Source: an uncultured Gammaproteobacteria bacterium | GTDB lineage: Bacteria; Patescibacteriota; Microgenomatia; 2-02-FULL-39-11 | Assembly (NCBI GenBank): GCA_964446235.1 | Contig: CAYUNW010000003.1 | Location: forward strand, 7,182-71,181 | Length of the DNA stretch: 64,000 nucleotides | Reading direction: 5' to 3' | Shown: positions 10,481 to 25,501 of the stretch, one piece after another | Position numbering within the stretch: the stretch's first letter is position 1 | Layout: each line of letters starts with the position of its first letter | Notes under the pieces: model-generated | The model's database searches: none | The model's input: only the letters and a program-made list of their open reading frames with translations | What the model was told of the DNA's origin: nothing | Translations under genes and position numbers: made by a program

Positions 10481-10918
10481 ATGAGAATTATCAACAAAAA
10501 AGCCCGTTTTGATTTTGAGATTTTGAACGAATATGAAACCGGTATTCAGTTAAACGGAGCAGAAGTAAAATCAGCCAAAAACGGTAAAATAAGTCTTGAT
10601 GGAGCATTTGTCAAAATAGTCGGTACGGAAATATTTCTTTTAAACGCTCAAATCCATCCGTATTTTTATGCCAGAACAGAAAATATTGATACCAAAAGAA
10701 CCAGGAAGCTTCTTATGCACAAAAAAGAGATTTTATCACTTAAAAACAAAATAGATACCCAGCGTTTGACCTTGGTTCCTTTGGAATGCTATAATCGCAA
10801 AGGCTTTGTGAAGCTGAAAATCGGTTTGGCAAGAGGTTTGAAGAAATACGAGAAGCGGGAAAAGATAAAAAAAGAAGATATTAAAAGACAAGTAGAAAGA
10901 GAGTTAAGAGGAAAATAA
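10481..10918 (+). CDS. smpB: SsrA-binding protein
   Basis: NKKARFDFEIL..GAEVKS..G..SL.GAFV and RKLLMHKKEI are typical of SmpB. It lies directly upstream of tmRNA. Confidence 0.95.
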   Translation: MRIINKKARFDFEILNEYETGIQLNGAEVKSAKNGKISLDGAFVKIVGTEIFLLNAQIHPYFYARTENIDTKRTRKLLMHKKEILSLKNKIDTQRLTLVPLECYNRKGFVKLKIGLARGLKKYEKREKIKKEDIKRQVERELRGK

Positions 10919-10934: not shown

Positions 10935-11335
10935 GGGGATGCTTTGATCGACGGGAATGCACTTTGAAAAACAGCAAGCCGACTTTGATATACAGTCGTA
11001 AAACAAATATTGAAAAATAAATGCTAATAAAATAGCAGACAGGCTTTTTGCTTTAAACACCCTTACAGGTGGAAGGCAATTAGCTTATGCAACTGCTTGA
11101 ATAAAGTAGTTAGCATACGCTAGCAGTACTTTCTTCCGGTGAGGTAGGGCTAGTGTTTATTTAGCCGGAACGTCAGGTATCAATTGATTCGCTTGATACC
11201 GGAGAGAAAAAGAATCAAACTTTTTTTGGTTTATTTGTCGGTTATTGCCAAAAAAAGTAAATAAACCGACTAAGCTTGTAGAAGTTTTTTGAAAAGCTTC
11301 TTCGGACTCCGCCTCACTGGCGGACATCTCCACCA
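10935..11335 (+). ncRNA. ssrA: tmRNA (transfer-messenger RNA)
   Basis: The 5' end GGGGAUGCUUUGAUCGACGGG pairs with the 3' end AUCUCCACCA, including the G3:U pair. Putative tag frame 11023-11100 (ANKIADRLFALNTLTGGRQLAYATA*). Located after smpB. Confidence 0.85.
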
Positions 11336-11358
11336 GAAATTTGTAAATTGTATAATCA

Positions 11359-11384
11359 AGACAGCTTTAAAAGGCTGTCTTTTT
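11359..11384 (+). terminator. Intrinsic terminator after ssrA
   Basis: AGACAGC-tttaaaag-GCTGTCT hairpin followed by a TTTT run. Confidence 0.6.
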
Positions 11385-12050
11385 ATGAATTTATTCGATT
11401 TTATATTTCCCAAAAGGTGTGTCGGATGCAATCGTATCGGACGGTATCTTTGTCAAAGATGTATTCATGATTTGGAGAAAATTGATTTTCCGATTTGTCC
11501 GGTATGCGGAAAAAATGCAATTGGAGGATTCACGCATACAGGCTGTCATCGGCAGTATTCGCTTGACGGTTTATTTGCCGGTATAAGGTATCAGGGGATT
11601 GGTAAAAAATTGATTCATTCTTTAAAATATAAATCTGTTTACGATATATCAAAAACAATTGTCCAATTATTTTGGGAAAATGTCGGAAATGAATTGCCTT
11701 TTGTTGATTTTATTGTCCCCGTGCCGCTTCATAGAAAAAGACAGTTAGAAAGGGGATTTAACCAGAGTTTGTATCTAGGGAAAATATTATCCAGAAAAAT
11801 AAATATTCCATTGAGAAATATATTAGAAAGATCGGTAAATACCATACCTCAAGTTAGTTTTAAAAGAGATAAGCGTTTGAAAAATGTACGAAATTCATTC
11901 AAACTACGAGATAAAGCATATATCAAAGGGAAAATTATCGGTCTTGTAGATGATGTATCTACAACACAAGCTACATTATCGGAATGCGGAAATGTTTTGA
12001 AAAGAAACGGAGCCTTGAAAGTTTACGGAATGGTTATGGCTCATGGTTAG
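11385..12050 (+). CDS. comF: ComF-family phosphoribosyltransferase-fold protein
   Basis: N-terminal Zn-ribbon Cys pairs (CVGC..CQRC..CPVC) and a PRTase motif (IGLVDDVSTTQAT). The upstream part of the track ORF (11289-11384) overlaps tmRNA and is rejected. Confidence 0.8.
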   Translation: MNLFDFIFPKRCVGCNRIGRYLCQRCIHDLEKIDFPICPVCGKNAIGGFTHTGCHRQYSLDGLFAGIRYQGIGKKLIHSLKYKSVYDISKTIVQLFWENVGNELPFVDFIVPVPLHRKRQLERGFNQSLYLGKILSRKINIPLRNILERSVNTIPQVSFKRDKRLKNVRNSFKLRDKAYIKGKIIGLVDDVSTTQATLSECGNVLKRNGALKVYGMVMAHG

Positions 12051-12098: not shown

Positions 12099-12185
12099 GG
12101 AGACGTCGCATAGTTGGTCCATTGCGAGGGTTTGCTAAACCCTTGAGCCGTAAGGCTCGCGTGGGTTCGAATCCCACCGTCTCCG
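12099..12185 (+). tRNA. tRNA-Ser (anticodon GCU)
   Basis: Hand-folded cloverleaf with 7-bp acceptor GGAGACG/CGTCTCC, anticodon loop TTGCTAA, long variable arm, and T-loop GGTTCGAATCC. Confidence 0.9.
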
Positions 12186-12206
12186 CACTTCGGCAAGCTC
12201 AGTGCT

Positions 12207-12512
12207 TTGCTTAAATACAAAATGACCTGGTATGTATATATTCTTCTTTGCGATCAGCAAACTTTTTACGTAGGCATTACTTCAGATATTGAAAAAAGAT
12301 TCCATAAACATAAATTGGGACTATCATTATTTACTAAAAAGTTTGCTGATATAAAGCTTGTTTATAAAGAAGAATTTAATAGTAAAGAAAAAGCATCAAG
12401 AAGAGAACTTCAACTAAAAAGGTGGTCACACGCAAAGAAGAAAGCGTTGATTGAGGGTAAAATACTTCAACTTCAAAATCTAGCAAGAAGCACTGGGTTT
12501 GGCGGAGTATGA
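12207..12512 (+). CDS. GIY-YIG nuclease-family small protein
   Basis: WYVYILLC..TFYVGIT..IEKRFHKH matches the GIY..YIG core. The start could be 12222. Confidence 0.8.
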   Translation: MLKYKMTWYVYILLCDQQTFYVGITSDIEKRFHKHKLGLSLFTKKFADIKLVYKEEFNSKEKASRRELQLKRWSHAKKKALIEGKILQLQNLARSTGFGGV

Positions 12513-12548
12513 AGTGGGATGAGAAGTATACAGTGAGCTCGTCGAACT

Positions 12549-12565
12549 GAATCCCACCGTCTCCG
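12549..12565 (+). repeat. Exact 17-nt copy of the tRNA-Ser(GCU) 3' end
   Basis: gaatcccaccgtctccg occurs at 12169-12185 and again at 12549-12565, bracketing the GIY-YIG ORF. Confidence 0.85.
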
Positions 12566-12687
12566 TATTTTCTGATAAAGGTTAAAAATATAGGTCGTTC
12601 CACAGTCTCAAAACTTACTTCAGGTTCTAACACTGTAACGGGTGGTGTTTTTCTATGAATTCAATTCAGATATAATATTCTTTTGTT

Positions 12688-13041
12688 ATGCATGAAATGC
12701 CAGTTATAAAAGAAATAATGAAAACGGTTAAAAGATATGCGAGAAAGAAATCGATTAGAAAAGTATCAAAAATCAACTTGGTGGTTGGTGAATTATCCAG
12801 TATCGTTGACGATTCTATGGAATATTACTTTCAAATCCTCAGTAAGAGCACAGTTGCTGAAAATGCTGTATTATCAATAAAAAGAACTCAAGCGATTGCT
12901 GTATGTAGTGTATGTAATTCAAAAATACCAACTTCATTACCTCTTCCTGATTCATGCTGTAAATGTCAGAGCAAGAATATTAAAATAGACGGTGGTTTGG
13001 AATTCTTTATTGATAGTATCGAGGTTGAAGATGAAAATTAG
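12688..13041 (+). CDS. hypA: Hydrogenase/urease nickel-insertion protein HypA
   Basis: MHEM N-terminus, CSVC..CCKC zinc site, ..IDSIEVE end. Confidence 0.85.
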   Translation: MHEMPVIKEIMKTVKRYARKKSIRKVSKINLVVGELSSIVDDSMEYYFQILSKSTVAENAVLSIKRTQAIAVCSVCNSKIPTSLPLPDSCCKCQSKNIKIDGGLEFFIDSIEVEDEN

Positions 13042-13666
13042 TATCAAAAAGCAGATATTTGAAGGTAACGATAAGGTCGCCCAAAGGAACAGGAAGATAT
13101 TTGATTCCCATAAAATTAAGGCGTTTAATATCATGGCTTCACCCGGAGCCGGAAAGACGAGTGTCATTCTTACCTTGGCAAAGCGGTTAAAACCAGATTT
13201 CCATATTGGCGTTATTGAGGGTGATATCGCTTCCCGGATAGATACAGATAAAATTATTAAAGAAGGATACCCGGCAGTACAAATAAATACAGGAGGTAAC
13301 TGTCACCTTGATGCAGTTATGGTTCAGAAAGCGATGGATAAATTACCCCTAAACAAGATCAATTTGCTATTTATAGAAAACGTAGGTAATCTCGTTTGTC
13401 CTGCTAATTTCAAATTAGGCACCCATAAAAATATTGTTATAGCATCTGTTCCTGAAGGTAGTGATAAACCGTATAAATATCCGGGGATGTTTGTTAAAGC
13501 TGATGCAATAATATTAAATAAAATAGACTTGATAAAGGTATTTGAATTTGATCTCAAATATTTTACTCATGGTTTGAATTCAATTAATCCTAAAGCTCCT
13601 TTATTTCTAGTTTCATGTAAGAAGATAAGCGGATTGAATAAAATGACCAATTGGATTACGGAATAA
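13031..13666 (+). CDS. hypB: Nickel-dependent GTPase HypB
   Basis: P-loop SPGAGKTS and ENVGNLVCP. ATG at 13031 overlaps the hypA stop by 11 nt. Confidence 0.9.
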   Translation: MKISIKKQIFEGNDKVAQRNRKIFDSHKIKAFNIMASPGAGKTSVILTLAKRLKPDFHIGVIEGDIASRIDTDKIIKEGYPAVQINTGGNCHLDAVMVQKAMDKLPLNKINLLFIENVGNLVCPANFKLGTHKNIVIASVPEGSDKPYKYPGMFVKADAIILNKIDLIKVFEFDLKYFTHGLNSINPKAPLFLVSCKKISGLNKMTNWITE

Positions 13667-13736
13667 GGACAGAAATTAAGTTTTTATATGGTGCCCAGTA
13701 GATTTTTATTTAATAAATTGGATAAGTAATTTATTA

Positions 13737-13970
13737 TTAATTTGGTATACAAGCCATCATCGTGCACATAACTCGGCCTTGTTGGCAACCGCAACTATTA
13801 CATCCGTCCGAAGCAGGGAAAGAATCTCCATCTTTATATTTTTTTCCTTCATAAACACAACTTTTAGGAATAATATTATTGATTGTTGGTATTATGTCAC
13901 GGATGAAATATCCTGATAAAAATCCAATGATAAGTGACCCTATGATGATGAAGGTAATATATTTTTTCAT
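13737..13970 (-). CDS. Small membrane-anchored Cys-rich protein (VWC-like cysteine spacing)
   Basis: N-terminal TM followed by CVYEGKKYKDGDSFPASDGCNSCGCQQGRVMCTMMAC. Confidence 0.5.
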   Translation of the reverse strand: MKKYITFIIIGSLIIGFLSGYFIRDIIPTINNIIPKSCVYEGKKYKDGDSFPASDGCNSCGCQQGRVMCTMMACIPN

Positions 13971-14100
13971 ATACTTTGTATTATATCAGATAGTTAATTT
14001 GATTTAGGCCTCATCTGAATAATTCGTAATATGAAATTCTGTTATTATATACATAATATTTTATCTGGATTTGTAATTTATTTGGTAATATAATAGGTAT

Positions 14101-14631
14101 ATGGTTTCTACTGTCCAAACATCTGCTAATTTTAAAGAGGATTTAAACGCTGTGCTATTGTTTTTCAAAGGCCCTTCCCATCCTTTCAAAAAAAGAAACA
14201 AGATTTTTTATCAGACTGTTGCTGCTATTACTTTTCTATTGAGTGTTATCGTATTTTTCATGCATGAATGGATCCTGATTGGTGTAATTTTATCGGTCGC
14301 TTTTGTCATCTATGTGATATCAACCGTGCCTCCGATAGATGTGGAACATAAATTTACTCCTCTAGGAGTAGAAAATGCCGGTGCTTTTTACCGGTGGATC
14401 GAATTGTATGCTTTCTGGTTTGAAAAAAAATGGGATTATGAGATATTAGTACTACAAACAAGATTGCCTATGCCGGCTCAGCTGAGAATTGTTTTGAAAG
14501 ACACTTCAAAAGATAAAGTGAAAGATATCATCGGAAAATACCTTCTTTATTATGAAAACCCACCAAAATCTTTCATTGACAATGTATCTGACTGGTTTTC
14601 GACAAAATTTCCTCTAGAGCCGATTACTTAA
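14101..14631 (+). CDS. Hypothetical membrane protein
   Basis: 176 aa with two central TM helices. No motif recognised. Confidence 0.4.
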   Translation: MVSTVQTSANFKEDLNAVLLFFKGPSHPFKKRNKIFYQTVAAITFLLSVIVFFMHEWILIGVILSVAFVIYVISTVPPIDVEHKFTPLGVENAGAFYRWIELYAFWFEKKWDYEILVLQTRLPMPAQLRIVLKDTSKDKVKDIIGKYLLYYENPPKSFIDNVSDWFSTKFPLEPIT

Positions 14632-14689
14632 TTACTTCATTTGGTTAAAACTAACCTAAATAATATAATATAGATTGGATTATTGTCGT

Positions 14690-14761
14690 GCGGCCATAGC
14701 TTAACGGATAGAGTAGAAGCTTGCGGAGCTTCTGGTCCCAGTTCGATTCTGGGTGGCCGCG
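14690..14761 (+). tRNA. tRNA-Arg (anticodon GCG)
   Basis: Acceptor GCGGCCA/TGGCCGC, anticodon stem GAAGC/GCTTC with loop TTGCGGA, T-loop AGTTCGATTCT. Confidence 0.85.
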
Positions 14762-14770
14762 CATTATATT

Positions 14771-14857
14771 GGAGGGATGCCGGAGCGGTTAAACGGCCAG
14801 GTCTCGAAAACCTTGGGGGATGAAAGTCCCACGTGGGTTCGAATCCCACTTCCTCCG
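14771..14857 (+). tRNA. tRNA-Ser (anticodon CGA)
   Basis: Acceptor GGAGGGA/TTCCTCC, anticodon loop CTCGAAA, long variable arm, T-loop GGTTCGAATCC. Confidence 0.85.
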
Positions 14858-14859
14858 CT

Positions 14860-15327
14860 ATGAAAAGAGAATTTTCTGCAGGTGGAATTGTTTATCAAAA
14901 AGTCAAAAGTCAAAAGTCAAAAGTCAAAAGTGACCTTTTATGGCTTGTTTGTCAGCATAGTCATCATAAAGGGTGGGTTTTCCCCAAAGGTTTAATTGGC
15001 GATCATAAAAAGGGAGAGTCAAGTGTTGATACGGCTGTCAGGGAAGTAGAGGAGGAGACGGGTGTGAAGGCAAAAATTATCACGAAATTACCAAAACCAG
15101 CTACTTATTTTTATGTTTGGGATAAAGAGAAAAGATTCAAAACTGTTATTTATTATCTAATGGAGTATGTATCTGAAGATGAAAAAAAGAAAGATAAAGA
15201 GATGAGCGCTGTAGAATGGCTCGATGAGGGTGAAATGAAAATTAGATTATCTTATAAATCAGACAAATTTGCTTTTGAGGAAGCACTGAAATTATTTAAT
15301 AATAATTCAAACGCGCCCATAGCTTAA
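14860..15327 (+). CDS. NUDIX hydrolase
   Basis: Nudix box GWVFPKGLIGDHKKGESSVDTAVREVEEETGV. The start is 3 nt after tRNA-Ser, and the last 15 nt overlap tRNA-Arg(CCG). Confidence 0.85.
   Translation: MKREFSAGGIVYQKVKSQKSKVKSDLLWLVCQHSHHKGWVFPKGLIGDHKKGESSVDTAVREVEEETGVKAKIITKLPKPATYFYVWDKEKRFKTVIYYLMEYVSEDEKKKDKEMSAVEWLDEGEMKIRLSYKSDKFAFEEALKLFNNNSNAPIA
14898..14931 (+). repeat. Heptanucleotide tandem repeat (AAAAGTC, about 4.9 copies) inside the NUDIX 5' region
   Basis: Period-7 repeat read directly from the sequence. It encodes KVKSQKSKVKS. Confidence 0.9.
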
Positions 15328-15384
15328 TGGATAGAGTAGCGGTTTCCGGAACCGCTGATGCCAGTTCGATTCTGGCTGGGCGTA
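15313..15384 (+). tRNA. tRNA-Arg (anticodon CCG)
   Basis: Acceptor GCGCCCA/TGGGCGT, anticodon stem GCGGT/ACCGC with loop TTCCGGA, T-loop AGTTCGATTCT. Confidence 0.85.
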
Positions 15385-15388
15385 CAAA

Positions 15389-15988
15389 ATGAAAAGTCAA
15401 AAGTCAAAAGTCAAAAGTCAAAAATTAGTTGATTTCATTTTTGAAGCCAGCACTTTAACCAGACTTAAAAGGACCGGTTGGCAAATTCTGGGAGCAGGTA
15501 ATTCGGAAACCATAGCCAGTCATACATTTATGGTTTCGATTATCAGTTTAGTTCTCGGGCAAATTATGAAAGCAAATATTGAAAAAGTCCTACTCATGTC
15601 CCTTTTACATGATTTTTCCGAAACAAGAACCGGTGATATTTATAAACTGGCTGATTATTATGTCAGCGCCAATACCCCAAAAGCGGATTTTGACTCCTTT
15701 TCCAATCTGCAAGATAGCCAGATATTTTTTTCACTAATTGAAGAATGTCATCTTAAAAAAAGTCTGGAAGCTCAAATTGTCAGTGACGCTGATGTATTAG
15801 CTTTAATCATAGAGCTTAAAATTTTAATCGAAAACGGTAACACTAACGCAAAAGAATGGTTAGATGCTAATCTGAACTTTTTGAAACTTGAAGAGTCGAA
15901 AAAATTAGGAATAGAAATCCAAAAAGGCAATTCTCAAAGATGGTGGGAGAAATACCGTAAACTGATTCACAAATCTACTGCAAAATAA
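15389..15988 (+). CDS. HD-domain phosphohydrolase (YfbR-like)
   Basis: H..HDFSETRTGD.. metal-binding pattern. Confidence 0.75.
   Translation: MKSQKSKVKSQKLVDFIFEASTLTRLKRTGWQILGAGNSETIASHTFMVSIISLVLGQIMKANIEKVLLMSLLHDFSETRTGDIYKLADYYVSANTPKADFDSFSNLQDSQIFFSLIEECHLKKSLEAQIVSDADVLALIIELKILIENGNTNAKEWLDANLNFLKLEESKKLGIEIQKGNSQRWWEKYRKLIHKSTAK
15392..15423 (+). repeat. Heptanucleotide tandem repeat (AAAAGTC, about 4.6 copies) at codons 2-12 of the HD gene
   Basis: Same unit as at 14898-14931. It begins immediately after the ATG. Confidence 0.9.
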
Positions 15989-16004
15989 TATAATTAAAGC
16001 CTTT

Positions 16005-16092
16005 GGAGAGGTCGCATAGTTGGTCTAGTGCGTTCGCTTGGAGAGCGAATACCACCGTAAGGTGGTCGCGAGTTCGAATCTCGCCCTCTCCG
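16005..16092 (+). tRNA. tRNA-Ser (anticodon GGA)
   Basis: Acceptor GGAGAGG/CCTCTCC, anticodon stem TTCGC/GCGAA with loop TTGGAGA, long variable arm, T-loop AGTTCGAATCT. Confidence 0.9.
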
Positions 16093-16196
16093 CACTGTTT
16101 GTTAATATTTTTGGTCCATATAAACGACATGCTTTTATTTACAGCTAAGTGGATATTATTTAAGCGATAGACAGACTCATTTAAGACATTTTATAT

Positions 16197-17198
16197 ATGA
16201 AGTTATCATCCGTTGATGTTTTGCTGACAAATTTTTGCAATCAAAGTTGCCCATTTTGTTTTGCCAGATTAGAAATGGCAAACTCCAAGAAAAAACAGAT
16301 GTTATATAAGGATTTTCGTTTTTTAGTGGCTAAACTTAGAGAAGCTCAGGCGGACTCGATAAATTTTTTGGGGGGTGAACCGACGTTGCATAAAGAATTT
16401 CCAAAAATTTTGGAATTAGCAATGAAAAATTTTATATTTGTCCGTATTTTTACAAACGGTATTTTCCCCAAAAATTCCAAACAGATAATCAGAAAGTACT
16501 TAAAAAGAATATATTTGAATTTTAACGTCAGTACACCGTCTTTTATAAATCAACCTAATATACGAGAGATTGTAATGAATAATATTTCGGAGTTTGTAGG
16601 TAAAACACAGGTTACTTTGGCTGTAACAGACGTTTTTCAGAACAATATGATAAAAAATAATGTATTTGCAAAATTTGATAGAGATATTATAAAAAAAGCA
16701 AATATCAGAATCGGCATCATGACTCCGATTGTAAATGATAAAAATCTTATTACCATAGAAGATTTCCCAAATATCGGAAACAATATCTGTCCGTTAATAA
16801 AATATTTAGAAGAGATAGGTCCTCCAAGGAGGATCGGTTTTAACACCGGTATGACTCCCTGTATGTTTAACGTTAATCAACGTAAGTTTTTGGCTGATAG
16901 GGGAATATCCATAAAACCTGATTGTCATTTGGGGTTTAATGATGTTTGGTTCAATGTGTCTACCGATTTATCGACGTTTAAGTGTTTTCCGTTATCTTCA
17001 ATAGATATTTTTAATATTACAAAAGATACTGATTTGAAGAAACTGCGTCTAAAATACCTTAATTTACAAAAGAGATACAATAAAATTCATTTATTACACT
17101 GTGAAGATTGTCCGGTAGATAAAAAAATACCGTGTAACGGGCCATGTATTGCTTTCAGAATCAATTCGCATAATAATATAATTAAGAGGGCTAATTAA
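16197..17198 (+). CDS. Radical SAM protein with C-terminal SPASM/twitch-like Cys cluster
   Basis: CNQSCPFC (CxxxCxxC) at residues 14-21, GGEPTL, and C-terminal HCEDCPVDKKIPCNGPC plus further Cys residues. Confidence 0.8.
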   Translation: MKLSSVDVLLTNFCNQSCPFCFARLEMANSKKKQMLYKDFRFLVAKLREAQADSINFLGGEPTLHKEFPKILELAMKNFIFVRIFTNGIFPKNSKQIIRKYLKRIYLNFNVSTPSFINQPNIREIVMNNISEFVGKTQVTLAVTDVFQNNMIKNNVFAKFDRDIIKKANIRIGIMTPIVNDKNLITIEDFPNIGNNICPLIKYLEEIGPPRRIGFNTGMTPCMFNVNQRKFLADRGISIKPDCHLGFNDVWFNVSTDLSTFKCFPLSSIDIFNITKDTDLKKLRLKYLNLQKRYNKIHLLHCEDCPVDKKIPCNGPCIAFRINSHNNIIKRAN

Positions 17199-17207
17199 AT
17201 ATATTAT

Positions 17208-17759
17208 ATGCGTATACTTAAAATTTCATTTTTACTGATAATTTTTATTGTAGCTTTAGAAACAGGAGTATTGATATATTTATACTATAAAAAACCTGAA
17301 ACAACATCGATTCAAAATGTTCCATTAGGAAAAACCGGTTTTGAAGCCAACACTATGAAAGCTTGGCTTTATAATGCTATTGACAGTATTCCTACCGATA
17401 CAGCAGTTCATCCAGATGCTTATGCTGTTGACAGCATAAAAGCATATTTTCACGCTTCTGCCAATTTCCGTAAAAAAATGCTATTAAGCATATCGGATAC
17501 AGGTAAGATAACCGCTCTAGATTTGGGTAAAAACATCGTTACATTACAATCTTTGGAAGGAGAAAAAATTGATACTTTTAAATTACCAACGGACGAGATA
17601 AATCAAATTACTAAGTATTATTTAATCGAGTCAAATTCCGGCAGTCAGAAAGATGCAAGTAAATCAGACATGAATATCGGTGATATAATTGAATTTAATT
17701 CAAACTATGATATGACTACGGGTAAATACACTTTAATGGATATCATAATAAAAAGATAA
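17208..17759 (+). CDS. Single-TM hypothetical protein
   Basis: 183 aa with an N-terminal TM. Coupled to the rSAM gene by a 9-nt gap. Confidence 0.4.
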   Translation: MRILKISFLLIIFIVALETGVLIYLYYKKPETTSIQNVPLGKTGFEANTMKAWLYNAIDSIPTDTAVHPDAYAVDSIKAYFHASANFRKKMLLSISDTGKITALDLGKNIVTLQSLEGEKIDTFKLPTDEINQITKYYLIESNSGSQKDASKSDMNIGDIIEFNSNYDMTTGKYTLMDIIIKR

Positions 17760-17761
17760 AA

Positions 17762-18018
17762 CATGAGAAAGAAAAAACAATATCAGAAACCTAAGGTAAA
17801 AATTCGTAAATTAAGTATCAATTTATTTATCAATGAACAGAATTTAAATTCTATGAATAGGATATTACTAGCTGCAGAACATCATTTAACATGAAAACCA
17901 AAAAAAATACCGAAAACCTAATGTTAAAATTCGTAAATTAAGCATCGATTTATTTATCAATGAATAGAATTTAAATTCTATGAATAGGATATTACTGGCT
18001 ACGGAACATCATTTGGAA
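17762..18018 (+). repeat. Tandem duplication (2 copies of about 128 bp) of the small-ORF region
   Basis: Copy 2 (17890-18018) aligns to copy 1 with scattered substitutions, one indel and a CAG-to-TAG change. The terminal MNRILLA(A/T)EHHL segment stays intact (17980-18024). Confidence 0.85.
17763..17894 (+). CDS. 43-aa small ORF, candidate precursor peptide
   Basis: MRKKKQYQKPKVKIRKLSINLFINEQNLNSMNRILLAAEHHLT. It starts 3 nt after the previous stop and is absent from the ORF track (below 60 aa). Confidence 0.4.
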   Translation: MRKKKQYQKPKVKIRKLSINLFINEQNLNSMNRILLAAEHHLT

Positions 18019-18026
18019 AAGTAAAA

Positions 18027-18872
18027 TCACTTAAAATAAATTTTTCTTGAAAGGCAACTTGGACAATTTCCACAATGAATATCAGAGTTTCTGTCGCAAC
18101 TGAAAGTTTTTGACAAGTCTAAACCGAAGTCTTGGGCAAAACGAACTAAATCATTTTTTGTATAATAAAAATTTTTAGCTTTTTCTACAGGTCCGCTCAA
18201 TTGCCATCTGTAATCACCCAATACCACGCAGAAAAACAGATTTATACTTCTAAGACATGTAAGGGTAGATTCTCTATTTACACGATTATTTTCCGGAATA
18301 AACCCGGTGAGTATTGTATTGACAGTTATACCTTTTTGATATTTCAAAAATAAGGCATATTCATAAATTCCGAATATATAATGCCCAAATCTAGCCGGAT
18401 TATTTGTGACGGAAACATAATCCTTTTTTGCTTGATGGTCGTGAATCAGATTAGGTAAGGAAGTTGGAAAATCATAAAAGATGTTTTTATCATTTTTAAT
18501 ATTTAGGAAGGAAAACAATTTATTGCCTTTTACTATAAAGACATCTTGATAATTTTTTGGAAATTTAGCTTTAAATAATTTGGAGTAATGACGTATAGAT
18601 TTTATCTGGCCGCTTCTTATATTTTTCCCAAAACAGAAATATACAGGATACACATTATAAGAGTATTTTTTCAGAAGCATATACCATAAACCGGTAGAAT
18701 CCAATCCTCCGGATAATGCTAAGATTACTGATGAGTTTTTCTTTGGCAGTTTGAAGGTATAATCTCTTTTATCAAGGAAAATTTGATCAATTTGTTTAAG
18801 TACTTTAGGATCTTCGAAATTGCCTTTTGAGCCAAATAGCACCTGATAATCCAAATTATAATTCATTTTCAT
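18027..18872 (-). CDS. QueC-like PP-loop ATPase
   Basis: LSGGLDSTG PP-loop and C-terminal zinc motif CGNCPSCLSRK, as in QueC. The rest is divergent. Confidence 0.6.
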   Translation of the reverse strand: MKMNYNLDYQVLFGSKGNFEDPKVLKQIDQIFLDKRDYTFKLPKKNSSVILALSGGLDSTGLWYMLLKKYSYNVYPVYFCFGKNIRSGQIKSIRHYSKLFKAKFPKNYQDVFIVKGNKLFSFLNIKNDKNIFYDFPTSLPNLIHDHQAKKDYVSVTNNPARFGHYIFGIYEYALFLKYQKGITVNTILTGFIPENNRVNRESTLTCLRSINLFFCVVLGDYRWQLSGPVEKAKNFYYTKNDLVRFAQDFGLDLSKTFSCDRNSDIHCGNCPSCLSRKIYFK

Positions 18873-19923
18873 AAATTACGGGATAAGATTCCTTGACAGA
18901 ATTTGGCGTGATAAATATAACTTTGGCATATTTTTTCAAATCTTCTATGTTAGTCACACCCTGATACCACATAGCTCGGGTAACGCCTGTAAGTAGTTTA
19001 CGTATAATATTTGATAAACTACCACAATAAGTAACTGATGATGTAATTCCTTCTTCAAAAACATCATTTGACATTTTTAAACGATTTGTATTTTTGGGTA
19101 AATTTGGCTTTAAAGCATTATATGTTGTTGAGCCGGCGCTTATTTTATACTTTTTTTTATCAACGGTTTTGACTTTACTACTTGCTTCATCAGTTCCTGC
19201 AAAAAGTCCACCGATCATGACTGAATCAGCTCCAAAGACCAGCGCTTTTACAATATCAGCCGGATTTCTTATCCCACCATCTGAAATAATTGGAATATTA
19301 TATTTTATAGCTACATCAGCACATTCTTTTATCGCCGATAATTGCGGTCTGCCGATAGCAGTCATGAGTCTAGTAGTACAGTGTGATCCTGCGCCTATAC
19401 CAACTCTTATGTTATCCGCTCCCGCATGAATAAGATCCAGAACTGCTTGTTTGGTAACTACCACGCCTGCAGAAATTATTGTTTTAGGATATCTTTTTTT
19501 AAATTCTTTAATAAATTGGAAAACTTCTATCGAGTGAGCTTGAGCAGAATCAAGCAATAAAATATCCGCGCCAGACTGAAGCAGTTTTTGGTATTTAGAA
19601 ATTTTTCGTATATCAAAATCAATAATTGTTGCTCCTACCTTAACATGATGCAGTTTTGTCTCAAAAATTTGTTCCAATTGTTTGTCAAAATTCTGGTAAG
19701 GATGGATAAAACCAATCCCTCCCATTTTTCCGATGGCTACGGCCATTTTGGTTTCAGTGATATTTTTCATCGGCGCTGATGATAAGGGGATATTCAGCTT
19801 GATGTTTTTGGATATATTTGTCGTAAGATCAAATTTATTGTTTTTGAAATTTTCCGATAATGTAGATTTTCTAGGTAAAAGTAAAACATCGTCAAATGTG
19901 AACTCAATATTTTTATTAATCAT
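18856..19923 (-). CDS. IMP dehydrogenase/GMP reductase-family TIM-barrel enzyme (no CBS insert)
   Basis: FDDVLLLPR start, catalytic loop GIGAGSHCTTR, ISDGGIR, GADSVMIGG. Confidence 0.75.
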   Translation of the reverse strand: MINKNIEFTFDDVLLLPRKSTLSENFKNNKFDLTTNISKNIKLNIPLSSAPMKNITETKMAVAIGKMGGIGFIHPYQNFDKQLEQIFETKLHHVKVGATIIDFDIRKISKYQKLLQSGADILLLDSAQAHSIEVFQFIKEFKKRYPKTIISAGVVVTKQAVLDLIHAGADNIRVGIGAGSHCTTRLMTAIGRPQLSAIKECADVAIKYNIPIISDGGIRNPADIVKALVFGADSVMIGGLFAGTDEASSKVKTVDKKKYKISAGSTTYNALKPNLPKNTNRLKMSNDVFEEGITSSVTYCGSLSNIIRKLLTGVTRAMWYQGVTNIEDLKKYAKVIFITPNSVKESYPVIYENEL

Positions 19924-19927
19924 AAAA

Positions 19928-21241
19928 TTATTTCATTGAATATACCGGTGCAATATCCGCTCCAAATCTTTGCGCAAGGGAATATGTATAGGCTCCCTGA
20001 TTTGTAATCATAACAATATCTCCAATCTTAAATTTTTTCGCGTAAGCATAAAATCCCCAAAGATCTAATTGCTGAGTACATAATGAACCGTATATCCGAT
20101 AATTAATTTCTGAATTTGAAGGATTTGAGAGGTTTATTATAGGAGTGTAATCATATGTTCGGCTTCCGATATTTACTAAATTAAGTGATCCATTCAATAT
20201 AATTATATTATCTTTTATATCGGCAACAGTGCATATGATATTCATCACGTCAGTAACAATTGACTTGCCAGGTTCATAAAATAATTTAATTTTATAATTA
20301 TTAGGTATATTTAATTTTATACTATCGGTAATTTCTTTAGCGTAAGTATCAATGTTTATTACGGGAGGAAAATCATACTTTTTACGAAAGTTAATATTTC
20401 CGTCAATAATACTATTTACCATGGGGGATATAGTTCCATTTAGTAATTTCCATGGATAATATCCATATGAATTTTCTGATCGAAATCCACCACCAATATC
20501 AATAAATTCAATATTTTCAATCATTTCACTTGAAAACTTATTTTTTAGATAAGATCCTATTCGTCTAATATTGTCATGATAATGACTGATGTTTCCATTG
20601 CCACTGGTATGAAAATGAATACCGCTTAAATTGAGGTAGGGAATTTGTTTAAGAAGTGTCCACGCTTGATAGAGTTCTTGAATATTTATTCCAAATTTAT
20701 CCCATGATTTCGACTTGGCATCCTTGATTCTTATTCCGACTGTGATTTTTTTATTTGACGGTTTTGTTGATTTTAATAAGTTAATTTCATTCAAACTGTC
20801 AATAATAAGAATAATATTATTTTTGAGAGAAATAATACGATTTATATCATCTAGTGTTTTGCCAGGTCCATTGATAATAATATTTTTTGCCTTGGAATCG
20901 ATTGCGTTTTGCAGTTCCCAAAGAGAACCAACCTCCAATCCATACTGTTTTTGAAGCACCTGATCCAAAATTAACTTATGATAATTAGCTTTGATAGAAT
21001 AATATCCTTGTGATAATGGGTAATATTTATGGAAAGCTTTTTGGAATTTTACTAAATTGGTTTTAAGAGCTGCAATATCCAATAAGTAGAATGGTGTTGG
21101 GTATTTTTTTGTTATGGAAAGGATTTTTTTACTTAACTTGGTGTATTTACTTATATTAAATGGAGATTGAGAATGGAAAACAGGGTCATTTATATGTTTA
21201 ACAATATTTTTAAAAGGTTTTTTTTTGTTTGAAATAATCAT
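19928..21241 (-). CDS. PLP-dependent decarboxylase, Orn/DAP/Arg decarboxylase family
   Basis: YYSIKAN (PLP Lys), HFHTSGNG, GGGF, EPGKSIV, GSLCTQQLD. Confidence 0.75.
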   Translation of the reverse strand: MIISNKKKPFKNIVKHINDPVFHSQSPFNISKYTKLSKKILSITKKYPTPFYLLDIAALKTNLVKFQKAFHKYYPLSQGYYSIKANYHKLILDQVLQKQYGLEVGSLWELQNAIDSKAKNIIINGPGKTLDDINRIISLKNNIILIIDSLNEINLLKSTKPSNKKITVGIRIKDAKSKSWDKFGINIQELYQAWTLLKQIPYLNLSGIHFHTSGNGNISHYHDNIRRIGSYLKNKFSSEMIENIEFIDIGGGFRSENSYGYYPWKLLNGTISPMVNSIIDGNINFRKKYDFPPVINIDTYAKEITDSIKLNIPNNYKIKLFYEPGKSIVTDVMNIICTVADIKDNIIILNGSLNLVNIGSRTYDYTPIINLSNPSNSEINYRIYGSLCTQQLDLWGFYAYAKKFKIGDIVMITNQGAYTYSLAQRFGADIAPVYSMK

Positions 21242-21243
21242 GC

Positions 21244-22083
21244 TTATATATTATTTAGCATATTAAATACCTCATTTTCATTTATATTGAAATATAATTC
21301 GTAAAAATCATACTTATATATGATACTGTTTAAGGTTTTTAAGTATTCAGATAAATCTTTTTTTGGATATTCAAGAAAATTTTTGTTATATGTTGTGAGT
21401 TTAATTAAATTATTTAATACAGTTAATTTATTTTTTACTTTTATTAATCTACAAACAGGTGATTTGTGGATAAAAAAAATACTATTTATGTGAATGGGAG
21501 TATTATTTTTTTTCTGATAAATATTTCTTTGAATAAATGGAGTTTGGAATAAAAAAAACTTATCTCCGATTTTTCTAATTACGGTCATGTCATCATTGAG
21601 GGGAAGATAAGTTTTTGCTAATAGTTTAGCAATCGTAGATTTGCCTGAATTGCTTTCCCCCAAAAAGACAAATGCCCCCTTTTTAGTTAAACAACTTGAA
21701 GCATGAAGCGTAAGGCCATGATTAACCAAGAGTAAAGAATTGAAAATATTCCGTAGAATGATATCAAAAAGATCCATGCTTAAATAATAAAAGGAAGTGA
21801 ATTCAAACGAATTTTCGTGTAATAAAAACTCCAATAAATATTTTTTTTCCAGGTTTATTTTTTTTATGAAAATATCATTGGGAATATCTTTGATATTTAT
21901 AATGCAATGGATTTTTTCAGGATTTTTTTGAGTTAAATAGTTTTTTAAATATTTTTTTATAATCTTGATCAGTTTATTTTTGGAAAGATTATATTTTGTT
22001 TCATAAAAGTTAATTCGGAAATTGAATTGCGCAATTCCTGCCGTAATTGTATAAATTATTCTCATCAATGGATAATTTAGCAC
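21244..22083 (-). CDS. HPr-kinase-related P-loop protein
   Basis: LHASSC..KGAFVFLGESNSGKSTIA is typical of the HprK C-terminal-like fold found next to PqqD-type proteins. Confidence 0.6.
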   Translation of the reverse strand: MLNYPLMRIIYTITAGIAQFNFRINFYETKYNLSKNKLIKIIKKYLKNYLTQKNPEKIHCIINIKDIPNDIFIKKINLEKKYLLEFLLHENSFEFTSFYYLSMDLFDIILRNIFNSLLLVNHGLTLHASSCLTKKGAFVFLGESNSGKSTIAKLLAKTYLPLNDDMTVIRKIGDKFFLFQTPFIQRNIYQKKNNTPIHINSIFFIHKSPVCRLIKVKNKLTVLNNLIKLTTYNKNFLEYPKKDLSEYLKTLNSIIYKYDFYELYFNINENEVFNMLNNI

Positions 22084-22119
22084 AAAAATATTATAGTTTT
22101 GAAGCAGAACTAAATAAAT

Positions 22120-22383
22120 CTATTCAATAACTTTTTTCTTTTTCAGAGTATTTATAAATTCTTTAACATCTTTAATTGCCTTCGTTTTTTCGACTGTATA
22201 AGATTTGGACAGTTTTTCGGCAATATTGTCAATATCTTCACCTCTTTTTAGGCAGTTGAAAATATATGATGCGGTGTCATTAAGATTCAAAAGACAGGAT
22301 TTTTCACTGTCAAAAATAACCGTTTGTTTATCCAGTTTTTGTACCAGTAACCCTTTTTTCAATTTAAACTTATTTTTTGCCAT
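22120..22383 (-). CDS. PqqD-family protein (RiPP recognition element-like)
   Basis: 87 aa. ..LLNLNDTASYIFNCLKRGEDIDNIAEKLSKSYTVEKTKAIKDVKEFINTLKKKKVI matches the PqqD size and pattern. Confidence 0.65.
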   Translation of the reverse strand: MAKNKFKLKKGLLVQKLDKQTVIFDSEKSCLLNLNDTASYIFNCLKRGEDIDNIAEKLSKSYTVEKTKAIKDVKEFINTLKKKKVIE

Positions 22384-22495
22384 AATTTATTAAAAAACAG
22401 GATAGCATTTATTGAATAAAATATAAAGCATAACACTTCATTTTTCTTTTTAAGTTAGACGTATTAAGATATAATACATTCTGTTTATTTAGATA

Positions 22496-22582
22496 GGAGA
22501 GGTGTCGGAGTGGTTGAACGAGCTGGTCTTGAAAACCAGTATAAGGGCAACCTTATCGCGAGTTCGAATCTCGCCCTCTCCG
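22496..22582 (+). tRNA. tRNA-Ser (anticodon UGA)
   Basis: Acceptor GGAGAGG/CCTCTCC, anticodon stem CTGGT/ACCAG with loop CTTGAAA, long variable arm, T-loop AGTTCGAATCT. Confidence 0.9.
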
Positions 22583-22672
22583 CAAAAAAACGTTATTCTA
22601 ATTTTAGCTATTGAATTTTTCCCGTCTTATGCTATAAGTATTTTATTAGGAAATTTATTAAGGGAGGTTTTT

Positions 22673-23897: not shown

Positions 23898-24659
23898 TTA
23901 CAATACTTGTTTAATATTTTTTAAGTTTTGTATCATTTTGTCATAAGCAGAATTCAAATTTTTTTTATTGTCGTATTTGTCCAATAGTTTATTCATATAA
24001 TAAGGTTTTTTTGATTTCAAATAGCTGATTTCTTCTATAAGTACAGGCATGGCTCTTGTGAGATTATCTACAATTGTGATATAGGCATTTCTGGCTGTTC
24101 TAGATAGGGGATTTAAGTCTACAGCTATTACTTTTTTACCTAGTTTTGAAAGCACTTCACATCTATCACCATCCTCAAGCGGTACAAATACCGTATCAGC
24201 TTTTTTGATACCGTTATTTAATACGATGGATCTGGGGCTTTGGATATTCGGTATGAAAGTTCTGTTTTTATAGGTACTTTGTAAAATAAATTTTCGGTCG
24301 AATTTTGATAGGTAATTTTCAATTAGTTTGACTCTTTTTTCACTTCTATGGAATAGATTGACTTCCACCTTTGAGTTAATCAGTTTTGCCAGTGTGACAA
24401 ACTCTTTGCCTGCTAAAGCAGCGGAATTGCCATTTATTGAGATGATTGGGGTTTTTGCTAAAAGCAAACATGCAGCAGCAGCTTTGATAGCCTTTATTGC
24501 AAAGTGGTTGGTTTTTTCGCCCAATAGATAGTCAAATGTTTCTCCTCTGCCGTGCGCAAGTAAACCCGCTTGGGAAGTAATGCCTTTTTTTAAACCATCT
24601 ACCAGTTTTTCTCTTATTACCAGGGAAGCATATCTTGGATGACTGGGATTGACTCTCAT
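23898..24659 (-). CDS. Archaeal-type phosphopantothenate synthetase (4-phosphopantoate--beta-alanine ligase)
   Basis: HPRYASLVIREKLV.G...GI....GLLAHGRGETFDYLLGEKT matches the conserved N-terminus of the archaeal PPS family. Confidence 0.7.
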   Translation of the reverse strand: MRVNPSHPRYASLVIREKLVDGLKKGITSQAGLLAHGRGETFDYLLGEKTNHFAIKAIKAAAACLLLAKTPIISINGNSAALAGKEFVTLAKLINSKVEVNLFHRSEKRVKLIENYLSKFDRKFILQSTYKNRTFIPNIQSPRSIVLNNGIKKADTVFVPLEDGDRCEVLSKLGKKVIAVDLNPLSRTARNAYITIVDNLTRAMPVLIEEISYLKSKKPYYMNKLLDKYDNKKNLNSAYDKMIQNLKNIKQVL

Positions 24660-25501
24660 AATCTAATTGAGTGATTTATATCGGTGATTTTTAATTTTTG
24701 GATAGGATAAGATAATTTTAGTTTGGGTTGCCGGTCTGTAATGATTACTTTTCCAAGCATATTTACCGAACAGGAAACCCCGTCTTTTTTAAGTAGTTTT
24801 ATGATATTTAACATTTCTTTATCAGTTAATATTTCCGATTTTATGGCAAATTCTAATGATTTGTCTAAAGCATCTGATAATGTTAGTTTGTCTTTATTTG
24901 CCAAAATATTACCCAAAATTTCCCGGGCAACCTTGTTTATCGTTTTAACTTTTTGATTATCGGTCAAAACGGTTGGTGTTTCAAGCTTGTCTATGATAAT
25001 TGCATACAGAAATTTATCACAAAAAGGAAAAGAGATAAATCTGGTAGGAATTCCCGGTTTGGTTTTGACCAAAAAACCACCGGTAATTTGGGTAGCCACA
25101 CTGCCAAGTCCGGTATGTTCTATAATTTCCGATTTGTGGGCAATAATGATAAGTTTTTGGGTTGATAAACCCAGCTTGAATAATTTATTGACTGCATCCA
25201 GGCTAGCAAGTGTTGCAGAGGCACTAATTCCGAATCCATAACCTAAAGGAAGCATCGAAGAGATTTCCAAACGGGTATTTTTCAGCCCGATCATTTTCAT
25301 TGCAGTTATTAAAGTGGGAAATCTGATTTTTCGTTTATTGAAGTAAATTTCCTGACTGGTATTTTTCTGGGCTAAGACTTGCACATTTTTGTCTACAGTA
25401 CAACCCATACCGATTGATCCTGCATGAACCAGATTTTTATGTGGTATGGACTGAAATATGAAACTTAAACTTGCCGGACAAACGGATATTTGACTGCTCA
25501 T
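24656..25501 (-). CDS. Archaeal-type pantoate kinase (GHMP family)
   Basis: GHMP motif LPLGYGFGISASATLA and EHTGLGSVATQITGG. 4-nt overlap with the PPS gene. Confidence 0.65.
   Translation of the reverse strand: MSSQISVCPASLSFIFQSIPHKNLVHAGSIGMGCTVDKNVQVLAQKNTSQEIYFNKRKIRFPTLITAMKMIGLKNTRLEISSMLPLGYGFGISASATLASLDAVNKLFKLGLSTQKLIIIAHKSEIIEHTGLGSVATQITGGFLVKTKPGIPTRFISFPFCDKFLYAIIIDKLETPTVLTDNQKVKTINKVAREILGNILANKDKLTLSDALDKSLEFAIKSEILTDKEMLNIIKLLKKDGVSCSVNMLGKVIITDRQPKLKLSYPIQKLKITDINHSIRL

Follow-up and report, generated by a model that had tools for sequence, protein, structure and literature searches.

The 64,000-nucleotide stretch of contig CAYUNW010000003.1 analysed here (hereafter, the window) contains two convergent operons (16197-22383) that meet at a tandem pair of small open reading frames (ORFs). 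The first of these, copy 1, is with high confidence the precursor (A) gene of an uncharacterised cluster, made up of both operons, for a RiPP (ribosomally synthesised and post-translationally modified peptide) whose production is predicted to depend on a RiPP recognition element (RRE) and a radical S-adenosylmethionine (radical SAM, rSAM) enzyme. On the + strand, the order of genes is rSAM, a 183-amino-acid protein and the two peptide copies; on the - strand, it is PqqD, an HprK/ScmC-like protein, a pyridoxal phosphate (PLP)-dependent decarboxylase, an IMPDH-like enzyme and a QueC-like ATPase. The duplicated region contains the following features:

17763-17894, + strand: copy 1, intact candidate precursor-peptide gene, 43 amino acids (ORF from ATG 17763 to TGA 17892-17894; match to the peptide hidden Markov model, HMM)
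17781-17798, + strand: predicted leader recognition motif Y7-Q-K-P10-K-V12 (YxxPx-hydrophobic), preceded by a Lys/Arg-rich N-terminus
17865-17891, + strand: LLA motif (L35-L36-A37) with the six-residue tail AEHHLT; an LLA-like motif with a short tail is recurrent in the family peptides
17891-18024, + strand: copy 2, inactivated paralogue (alignment with copy 1, peptide HMM)
17900-17907, + strand: A8 run with a one-nucleotide deletion that parts the copy 2 ATG (17891) from the homologous frame (register shift from 128 to 127)
17965-17967, + strand: in-frame TAG at codon 26 of copy 2, where copy 1 has CAG (Gln26)

The translation of copy 1 is MRKKKQYQKPKVKIRKLSINLFINEQNLNSMNRILLAAEHHLT. The stop codon of the preceding gene lies 3 nucleotides before its ATG, and the opening ATG of copy 2 (17891-17893) overlaps its TGA; both this ORF and the ATGA overlap are exactly as described in the initial annotation, which had proposed a candidate RiPP precursor beside an rSAM/SPASM enzyme. 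Small ORFs of this kind are evidently left uncalled in most assemblies, and the rSAM was therefore taken as the anchor for finding relatives. A word-indexed protein search returned 56 rSAM homologues, the family counts 365 representatives in a set of 1.84 billion proteins (E<=1e-30), and a further 89 loci came from genome and metagenome collections scanned with the alignment of the rSAM, among which the informatively titled records are mostly metagenome-assembled genomes (MAGs) of Patescibacteria (Gottesmanbacteria, Microgenomates). In the four closest loci (L003, L004, L005 and L007 in our numbering of the comparison loci), a small ORF is found beside the rSAM in each case, within the same architecture; in L003, L005 and L004, the ORF adjoining the rSAM encodes MKKKKKYHKPVIKQKKIKARLYQDPFHFKNPMDFNPQEDLLLTMEHHL, MNIIKKKKYQKPKIITRLLVIKLRKGGKNFDDLIDLFAANYYLVDY and MRNHRRINKKRKPYQKPRDTVKLLDVNLSSLAMQHYLFGY, respectively. 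The comparison of orthologous loci that the initial annotation had suggested thus supports its proposal: the frame and the C-terminal part of the peptide are kept at the amino acid level, with segments that are alike while their nucleotides differ (LLAAEHHLT, LLLTMEHHL, MAMEHHLP and LFAAVHHLAEGY). Cluster-bearing MAGs L009, L012, L014, L015, L017 and L022 carry 'uncultured Gammaproteobacteria' titles and are possibly mislabelled; the other titled records with the cluster are only Patescibacteria/Microgenomates. Judging by the titles of these relatives, the genome to which the window belongs is itself probably patescibacterial.

Family peptides were recovered by a motif scan and then with an HMM of 23 sequences. 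When the window sequence was left out of the model, copy 1 was still recovered in a search of 31,950 six-frame segments (E=3.9e-10, 40.6 bits), and none of 2000 shuffled sequences reached its score, the best shuffle scoring 11.4 bits. The 23-sequence model also detected peptides outside its seed (L031, E=3e-11; L034, E=3e-8) and produced matches in 31 of the 47 loci that are flanked on either side by 400 nucleotides or more, 21 of these matches being within 300 nucleotides of the rSAM. The peptides share a layout that consists of a Lys/Arg-rich N-terminus, Y-x-(K/R)-P-x-hydrophobic, a spacer of about 20-30 residues, (E/D/N)-x-L-L-A-(A/T/M) and a variable tail. Motifs were counted over 37 unique family peptides chosen by the pattern [YFW]..P. 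The first residue of the motif is Y in 37/37, the invariance of Y and P being partly by construction as the regular expression for the HMM seed demanded a [YFW]x[KR]P core; the third position is K or R in 29/37, and the residue two positions after P is hydrophobic in 31/37. Because the aromatic-x-x-P core was required by the selecting pattern, only the remaining motif features can be considered independent evidence. Among these, an LLA-like motif followed by a tail, typically of 4-10 residues, is found in 33 of the 37 peptides. The tails themselves differ strongly between loci (EHHLT, VMTE, ATKV, DQYVWDAY, TCAWEEY), and 15 of the 37 peptides end in Tyr. The (E/V)HHL type of tail recurs, with different codons, in L003 (MEHHL), in the Gottesmanbacteria MAG L007 (MEHHLP) and in L024 (VHHLAEGY). 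LLA and AEHHLT are the probable modified (core) region of copy 1. By all the tests that can be run on sequence, copy 1 qualifies as a RiPP precursor.

A Lys-rich leader had been part of the initial proposal, and the Lys-rich stretch does appear to belong to the leader; it is only a part of it, and the informative element is Y7-x-x-P10-x-V12. The discrete RREs of lasso peptide systems recognise [Y/W]xxPx[L/V/I/F/A], according to a 2026 study in which YxxP was also found to be essential for RRE binding in LPP, a family in which an RRE and an HprK-like kinase occur together (PMC13381572); Y7-Q-K-P10-K-V12 of the window peptide fits this published motif. The absence of Cys from the putative core, seen as atypical for a SPASM substrate, loses its force as an objection: there is indeed no Cys in either copy, but SuiB, which is among the enzymes structurally closest to the rSAM, acts on a substrate that is cross-linked without Cys, and Cys-rich tails are rare in the family (L017). 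The two Cys-rich-tail variants are encoded at L017:1432-1647 and L017:6074-6250 (ending in CWNYICQPCSQPACGSDCAC and SGYCTGICAYCL), each with its own ScmC-like gene beside it. There is, in addition, a second, shorter class of peptides (28-36 amino acids) that have the same K-rich/YxKP leader and end in K(I/V)xT(D/G)Y, NSY or SGY. Members of this class, which often share the locus with an LLA-type peptide, are encoded at L004:15778-15879, L007:8969-9064, L014:6980-7090, L016:7522-7623, L035:1686-1787, L037:2963-3055, L039:6986-7096, L042:6962-7072, L064:1755-1841 and L065:8479-8589; a peptide of this type (ending in TDY or GY) was sought in the window and none was found. In the literature searched for Patescibacteria, QueC or HprK in combination with RiPP terms, the coverage of which is incomplete, no description of the peptide family was found.

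The genes that accompany the two copies are the following:

16197-17198, + strand: SPASM-like radical SAM enzyme, 333 amino acids (Pfam Radical_SAM and Fer4_12)
17208-17759, + strand: membrane-anchored protein, 183 amino acids, between the rSAM and the precursor genes
18027-18872, - strand: QueC-like PP-loop ATPase, 281 amino acids, with SGGLDS and a C-terminal CxxC zinc motif (Pfam QueC)
18856-19923, - strand: IMPDH/GMP-reductase-like TIM-barrel enzyme without the CBS insert (Pfam IMPDH, E=5e-98)
19928-21241, - strand: PLP-dependent decarboxylase of the ornithine/diaminopimelate/arginine type (Pfam Orn_Arg_deC_N)
21244-22083, - strand: HprK/ScmC-like P-loop protein, probable peptide kinase (homologue profile matches)
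22120-22383, - strand: discrete PqqD-family RRE, 87 amino acids (Pfam PqqD, E=2.9e-14)

Over 70 family loci, PqqD is encoded in 34, a ScmC-like protein in 39 and a QueC-like protein in 20; among 23 control loci with unrelated rSAMs, a single one has any of the three. At the level of sequence, comparison of the loci establishes the family of peptides, the motifs that they carry and their linkage to the genes for the rSAM, PqqD and the ScmC-like and QueC-like proteins. The rSAM itself opens directly with the CNQSCPFC motif and accordingly has no fused RRE. The CX3CX2C cysteines (C14, C18 and C21) and seven further ones (C222, C243, C263, C302, C305, C313 and C317) are invariant among 29 sequences. 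The AlphaFold model of the enzyme (pLDDT 88.5) is most similar to the PDB folds of SuiB, SkfB, ChlB, BlsE and anSME, and the sequence scores below every curated NCBIfam cut-off. In many loci (L004, L007, L024, L027, L030, L031 and L033), two paralogous rSAMs are encoded side by side, and some of these double-rSAM loci have two PqqD and two ScmC-like genes, suggestive of duplicated maturation modules.

The PqqD protein shows the best NCBIfam similarity to the PqqD chaperones of lasso peptides, and its best matches among PDB sequences are TfuB1 (1.9e-6) and TbiB1 (3.3e-4). The ScmC-like protein of the window has a single weak match, to TIGR04249 (ScmC; E=0.0089, 15.4 bits). Its 17 aligned homologues match ScmC (14), HprK_rel_A (12), HprK_rel_B (9) and HPr(Ser) kinase (7), all below cut-off, and PDB sequence searches with the protein or its profile yield mostly generic P-loop matches, with HPr kinase weakly. 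Conservation extends to the His/Ser and GxxGxGK(S/T) residues that a protein of the HprK/ScmC fold should have: H127, S129, G142, G147, T150 and D164 are invariant, K148 and D165 nearly invariant.

The QueC-like gene is convergent on the precursor genes, its stop being 2 nucleotides from that of copy 2. The encoded protein falls short of the QueC equivalog model TIGR00364 (39.8 vs 150.3 bits), which it matches mainly over the C-terminal zinc motif. In 13 of the 17 aligned homologues, a C-terminal PqqD/RRE domain is fused to the QueC-like ATPase (best E=8e-13), which marks this ATPase as a peptide-modifying enzyme. The fusions are encoded in L009, L010, L012, L013, L014, L016, L020, L022 (7270-8541), L037, L039, L042, L059 and L065. 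The window protein is the short form and would rely on the discrete PqqD. The literature that was searched, although not complete, does not describe a RiPP pathway with a QueC-like or QueC-RRE enzyme. The IMPDH-like enzyme scores under all NCBIfam equivalog cut-offs and keeps the catalytic Cys loop GIGAGSHCTT. The PLP decarboxylase is found in 1/70 and the IMPDH-like enzyme in 0/70 family loci, the former as an orthologue in the closest locus, L003, in the same position after the ScmC-like gene; as both genes lie between conserved members of a tight operon, they probably tailor the window variant. The 183-amino-acid protein belongs to no Pfam or NCBIfam family, and a protein database search with it was empty; its one homologue, 39% identical (E=5e-29), is encoded by the related L004 cluster.

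In the mechanism that can be proposed from this set of components, the 43-amino-acid peptide would be translated, probably in a coupled manner with the upstream gene. Its leader, that is, the Lys/Arg-rich N-terminus and Y7-x-x-P10-x-V12, would be bound by the discrete PqqD-type RRE (22120-22383), in the way that lasso B1 proteins bind YxxPxL leaders. We infer that the RRE then delivers the peptide to the SPASM-like rSAM (16197-17198), itself devoid of an RRE, to which the LLA motif and the AEHHLT tail would be presented. Further processing would be the task of the HprK/ScmC-like kinase and of the ATP-dependent, QueC-like enzyme, possibly with contributions from the PLP decarboxylase and the IMPDH-like enzyme.

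Several results weigh against the assignment of the cluster to RiPP biosynthesis, apart from the fact that Y and P are invariant partly by construction. At E<=0.01, the rSAM is matched by Radical_SAM and Fer4_12 only and not by the SPASM model of Pfam (PF13186), and the matches of the cluster enzymes to curated RiPP families are all far under cut-off. Domain scans recognise neither a leader peptidase nor an exporter in the window cluster. Neither version of the peptide matches a family in Pfam or NCBIfam, and only copy 1 itself was returned when its peptide was compared with an index of 5.8 billion proteins. The peptide went undetected in 16 of the 47 adequately flanked loci, and all the comparison loci are metagenomic.

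Judged by its sequence features, the precursor cannot be placed in any of the RiPP classes with which it was compared. The lasso system (TfuB1, TbiB1) shares with the window cluster a discrete PqqD-family RRE and a Y-x-x-P-x-hydrophobic motif near the N-terminal part of the leader. In contrast to lasso systems, however, Pfam and NCBIfam scans of the genes in 16197-22383 identify neither an Asn-synthetase-like cyclase (C) nor a transglutaminase-like B2 protease, the maturase is a radical SAM enzyme and the tail appears too short to form a lasso. Unlike sactipeptides and ranthipeptides, neither window copy has Cys to serve as a thioether donor. The LPP/paeninodin-type clusters (PMC13381572) resemble some related loci, in which NTP_transf_5 (6 of 150 ORFs scanned) and S24/S26-type peptidases (4 of 150) are encoded, but the extended leader motif of LPP, YxxPxVLxHQxIxFETxxS, is absent and only its YxxPxV part is present in the window peptide. 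Furthermore, neither a SpI-like peptidase nor an NTP transferase nor an MsbA-like exporter was found in 16197-22383 or the flanking genes, the window cluster adds the rSAM and the QueC-like enzyme, and the loci belong mainly to Patescibacteria-labelled MAGs rather than to Bacillota.

The trio of rSAM/SPASM, PqqD and ScmC-like P-loop protein is also characteristic of the SynChlorMet cassette (ScmC, the PqqD-like ScmD and the rSAM/SPASM proteins ScmE and ScmF), and ScmC is the most frequent NCBIfam match of the ScmC-like proteins of the family (14/17). The window proteins nonetheless score far below the respective equivalog cut-offs (in bits, 15.4/125 for ScmC, 17.1/100 for ScmD, 24.9/400 for ScmE and 27.7/400 for ScmF). 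To our knowledge, the SCM precursor is undefined in the TIGRFAM description; a literature search on ScmC and SynChlorMet returned unrelated acronyms only. The SPASM/twitch maturases (SuiB for streptide, SkfB, anSME) are the nearest folds (Foldseek E of about 1e-9, TM 0.6), and the window rSAM has CX3CX2C and seven auxiliary Cys as these enzymes do, but it shows only 14-17% identity to them, lacks the N-terminal RRE domain and has another substrate motif.

A parallel for the QueC-like enzyme is provided by the ATP-dependent enzymes that turn carboxylates into nitriles or amides, namely QueC/ToyM and PesC, the latter being the enzyme of the nitrilobacillins that performs a C-terminal carboxylate reaction on a peptide (PMC13060819). 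As with PesC, a PP-loop ATPase is encoded in a RiPP cluster, although PesC is asparagine-synthetase-like and the window enzyme is QueC-like. By this analogy, a C-terminal carboxylate reaction can be hypothesised for the window cluster. A tentative and less than probable extension is that the cluster represents a new RiPP class, in which the QueC-like ATPase activates a carboxylate of the tail (the C-terminus or Glu39) in combination with the SPASM-like rSAM and the HprK-like kinase, with the lasso-type YxxP leader guiding all three enzymes, so that an amide, nitrile or amine conjugate would be formed. The embedded PLP decarboxylase could then supply the amine in the window variant.

Among the other explanations of the locus, the one that survives best, even if it is improbable, is that the peptide is a sacrificial scaffold for a small molecule, in the style of PQQ, mycofactocin or pearlin, such that the last residues become a cofactor-like compound and the PLP decarboxylase, the IMPDH-like and the QueC-like enzymes act on the tail. 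The shortness of the variable part, only 4-10 residues after LLA, and the C-terminal Tyr of 15 of the 37 family peptides would fit this possibility, as would the small-molecule-type enzymes embedded in the operon and the fact that an exporter or protease was not found in the window cluster. An rSAM and a PqqD acting on the C-terminus of a peptide would, in addition, parallel the well-known MftB/MftC and PqqD/PqqE pairs. However, cofactor precursors typically keep their reacting residues invariant, mycofactocin and PQQ precursors having a C-terminal GVY or E-x3-Y, respectively, whereas the tail of the window peptide is AEHHLT and the tails of this family vary strongly between loci. The matches to the MftC (25.8 vs 265 bits) and PqqE (28.6 vs 381 bits) models are far under cut-off, and the PLP decarboxylase and the IMPDH-like enzyme are not conserved among the family loci (1/70 and 0/70).

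The second copy of the precursor gene is a tandem paralogue that appears to have been recently inactivated, by a one-nucleotide deletion in the A run and a CAG-to-TAG change. Tandem Repeats Finder identifies a single array (17760-18014; period 127, 2.0 copies, 88% matches, score 405), and the pairwise alignment of the two copies has a mean column identity of 90%. The start-to-start distance is 128 nucleotides and the register drops to 127 nucleotides after the A run, which implies that one A was lost in the run of copy 2 and that its own ATG is out of frame; the homologous frame (from 17890) has no start codon. The break by an indel and a CAG-to-TAG change that had been noted initially is thereby confirmed and can be placed in A8 (17900-17907) and at 17965-17967. 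Both lesions are identical in three assemblies, which rules out an error in a single one: the JGI metagenome assemblies L001 and L002, each obtained from its own sample, match the window with 100% identity over 6.1 and 3.4 kb and share the two lesions. TAG ends 8 of the 51 long ORFs of the window (TAA 33, TGA 10), so that it is an ordinary stop here and the standard code applies; an alternative genetic code with TGA or TAG as sense was rejected, both codons terminating long window ORFs. If the missing A were added back and the TAG were CAG again, copy 2 would encode MKTKKKYRKPNVKIRKLSIDLFINEQNLNSMNRILLATEHHLEK, which scores 31.5 bits with the leave-one-out HMM. As they stand, the leader and C-terminal fragments of copy 2 are the top window segments after copy 1 with the 23-sequence HMM, at E=2.8e-4, which is significant, and E=0.13, respectively; with the leave-one-out HMM (E=0.0038 and 0.61), an unrelated segment ranks between the two and only the leader fragment is significant.

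Between codons 7 and 42, the copies differ by 7 synonymous and 4 non-synonymous changes (synonymous divergence, dS, 0.47; non-synonymous divergence, dN, 0.05; dN/dS 0.10; binomial P=0.0015), strong divergence being confined to the first six codons, and the differences by codon position are 3/1/8. The predominance of synonymous differences in leader and tail alike indicates selection on the protein and not on the RNA; since they arose by duplication, both copies have therefore evolved mostly under purifying selection at the peptide level. The selective conservation of the C-terminal 13-14 codons of copy 2, which had initially been taken as a sign of a core peptide, is not borne out: the leader (codons 7-25, dN/dS 0.13) is constrained equally with the C-terminal part (codons 27-42, 0.07), and copy 2, as a recently inactivated paralogue, provides no evidence for a selectively kept core. 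The ATG-initiated ORF for MNRILLATEHHLEK (17980-18024; 14 codons) is present as originally reported and appears incidental, its ATG being the counterpart of the internal Met31 codon of copy 1. Intact tandem precursor pairs are also found in L010 and L045, and several loci have two precursor genes; tandem duplication of the A gene thus appears to be a recurrent habit of this peptide family.

It is quite unlikely that copy 2 still functions, be it through slippage on the A8 run or as the leaderless 14-amino-acid MNRILLATEHHLEK translated from ATG 17980. Slippage could occur at the A8 run, where one more A restores MKTKKKYRKPNV..., and the C-terminal segment is intact with few non-synonymous changes. 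Even with slippage, though, the TAG at 17965-17967 would stop translation after 25 residues, before LLA and the tail, whereas the mini-ORF lacks the YxxP leader that RRE recognition needs and starts at a Met31 codon that copy 1 has as well. A low dN combined with two disabling lesions is the look of recent inactivation.

Another explanation, raised already in the initial annotation, is that the repeat acts at the nucleotide level, be it as an RNA, as a terminator or as a site for protein binding, with the palindrome AGAATTTAAATTCT at its centre and the ORFs incidental. The repeat fills the entire space between the convergent genes, and the perfect 14-nucleotide palindrome is found in each copy (17839-17852 and 17966-17979). 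This explanation is very improbable. The differences between the copies are concentrated at third codon positions, and the orthologues keep the peptide (E-H-H-L, with other codons), not the palindrome, which is all A/T save for one G-C pair at its outer end. Over the repeat, there is no Rfam match at E<=1, the lone, sub-threshold SmY match (18502-18577) being elsewhere in the scanned stretch; the fold energy is unremarkable (z=-0.81), and a terminator scan identifies no terminator-like site. Finally, that copy 1 is an ORF by chance or encodes some small basic protein with no connection to the cluster, as its AT-rich, Lys-rich composition and the lack of database homologues might suggest, can hardly be reconciled with the leave-one-out HMM match, the shuffle control and the physical linkage to homologous rSAM genes in many loci.

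Given these observations, the window cluster is very probably an RRE-dependent radical-SAM RiPP system, an unstudied pathway of a probable candidate phyla radiation (CPR) bacterium that includes an unusual QueC-like peptide enzyme. RiPPs have been recognised in CPR bacteria only recently. The substrate gene can now be pinned for a rare rSAM family (365 representatives), and the lasso-type YxxP/RRE recognition code appears to be reused with a different set of enzymes. The fusion of the QueC-like enzyme with an RRE suggests unexplored ATP-dependent peptide chemistry, and with the predicted precursor defined, the pathway is open to heterologous co-expression tests.

The cluster is bracketed exactly by two tRNA-Ser genes (16005-16093 and 22496-22583) and is flanked by housekeeping genes, namely those for SmpB, tmRNA, HypA/HypB, primase, RpoD and coenzyme A pathway enzymes. 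Within 10.5 kb of the window (12099-22583), there are four tRNA-Ser genes (gct, cga, gga and tga) and two tRNA-Arg genes, with which the genes for a NUDIX protein (14833-15327) and an HD protein (15389-15988) are interleaved. Homologues of the HD protein are encoded beside the QueC-like gene in L013, L020, L056 and L059. The SmpB gene (10481-10918) is directly followed by the tmRNA gene (10935-11335), the 3' end of which is overlapped by a mechanically called ORF (11289-12050). On the - strand, a gene of the phosphopantothenate/pantothenate synthetase family (Pfam PPS_PS, 23898-24659) adjoins a GHMP-kinase gene (24656-25501), a pairing that constitutes the archaeal-type route to coenzyme A.

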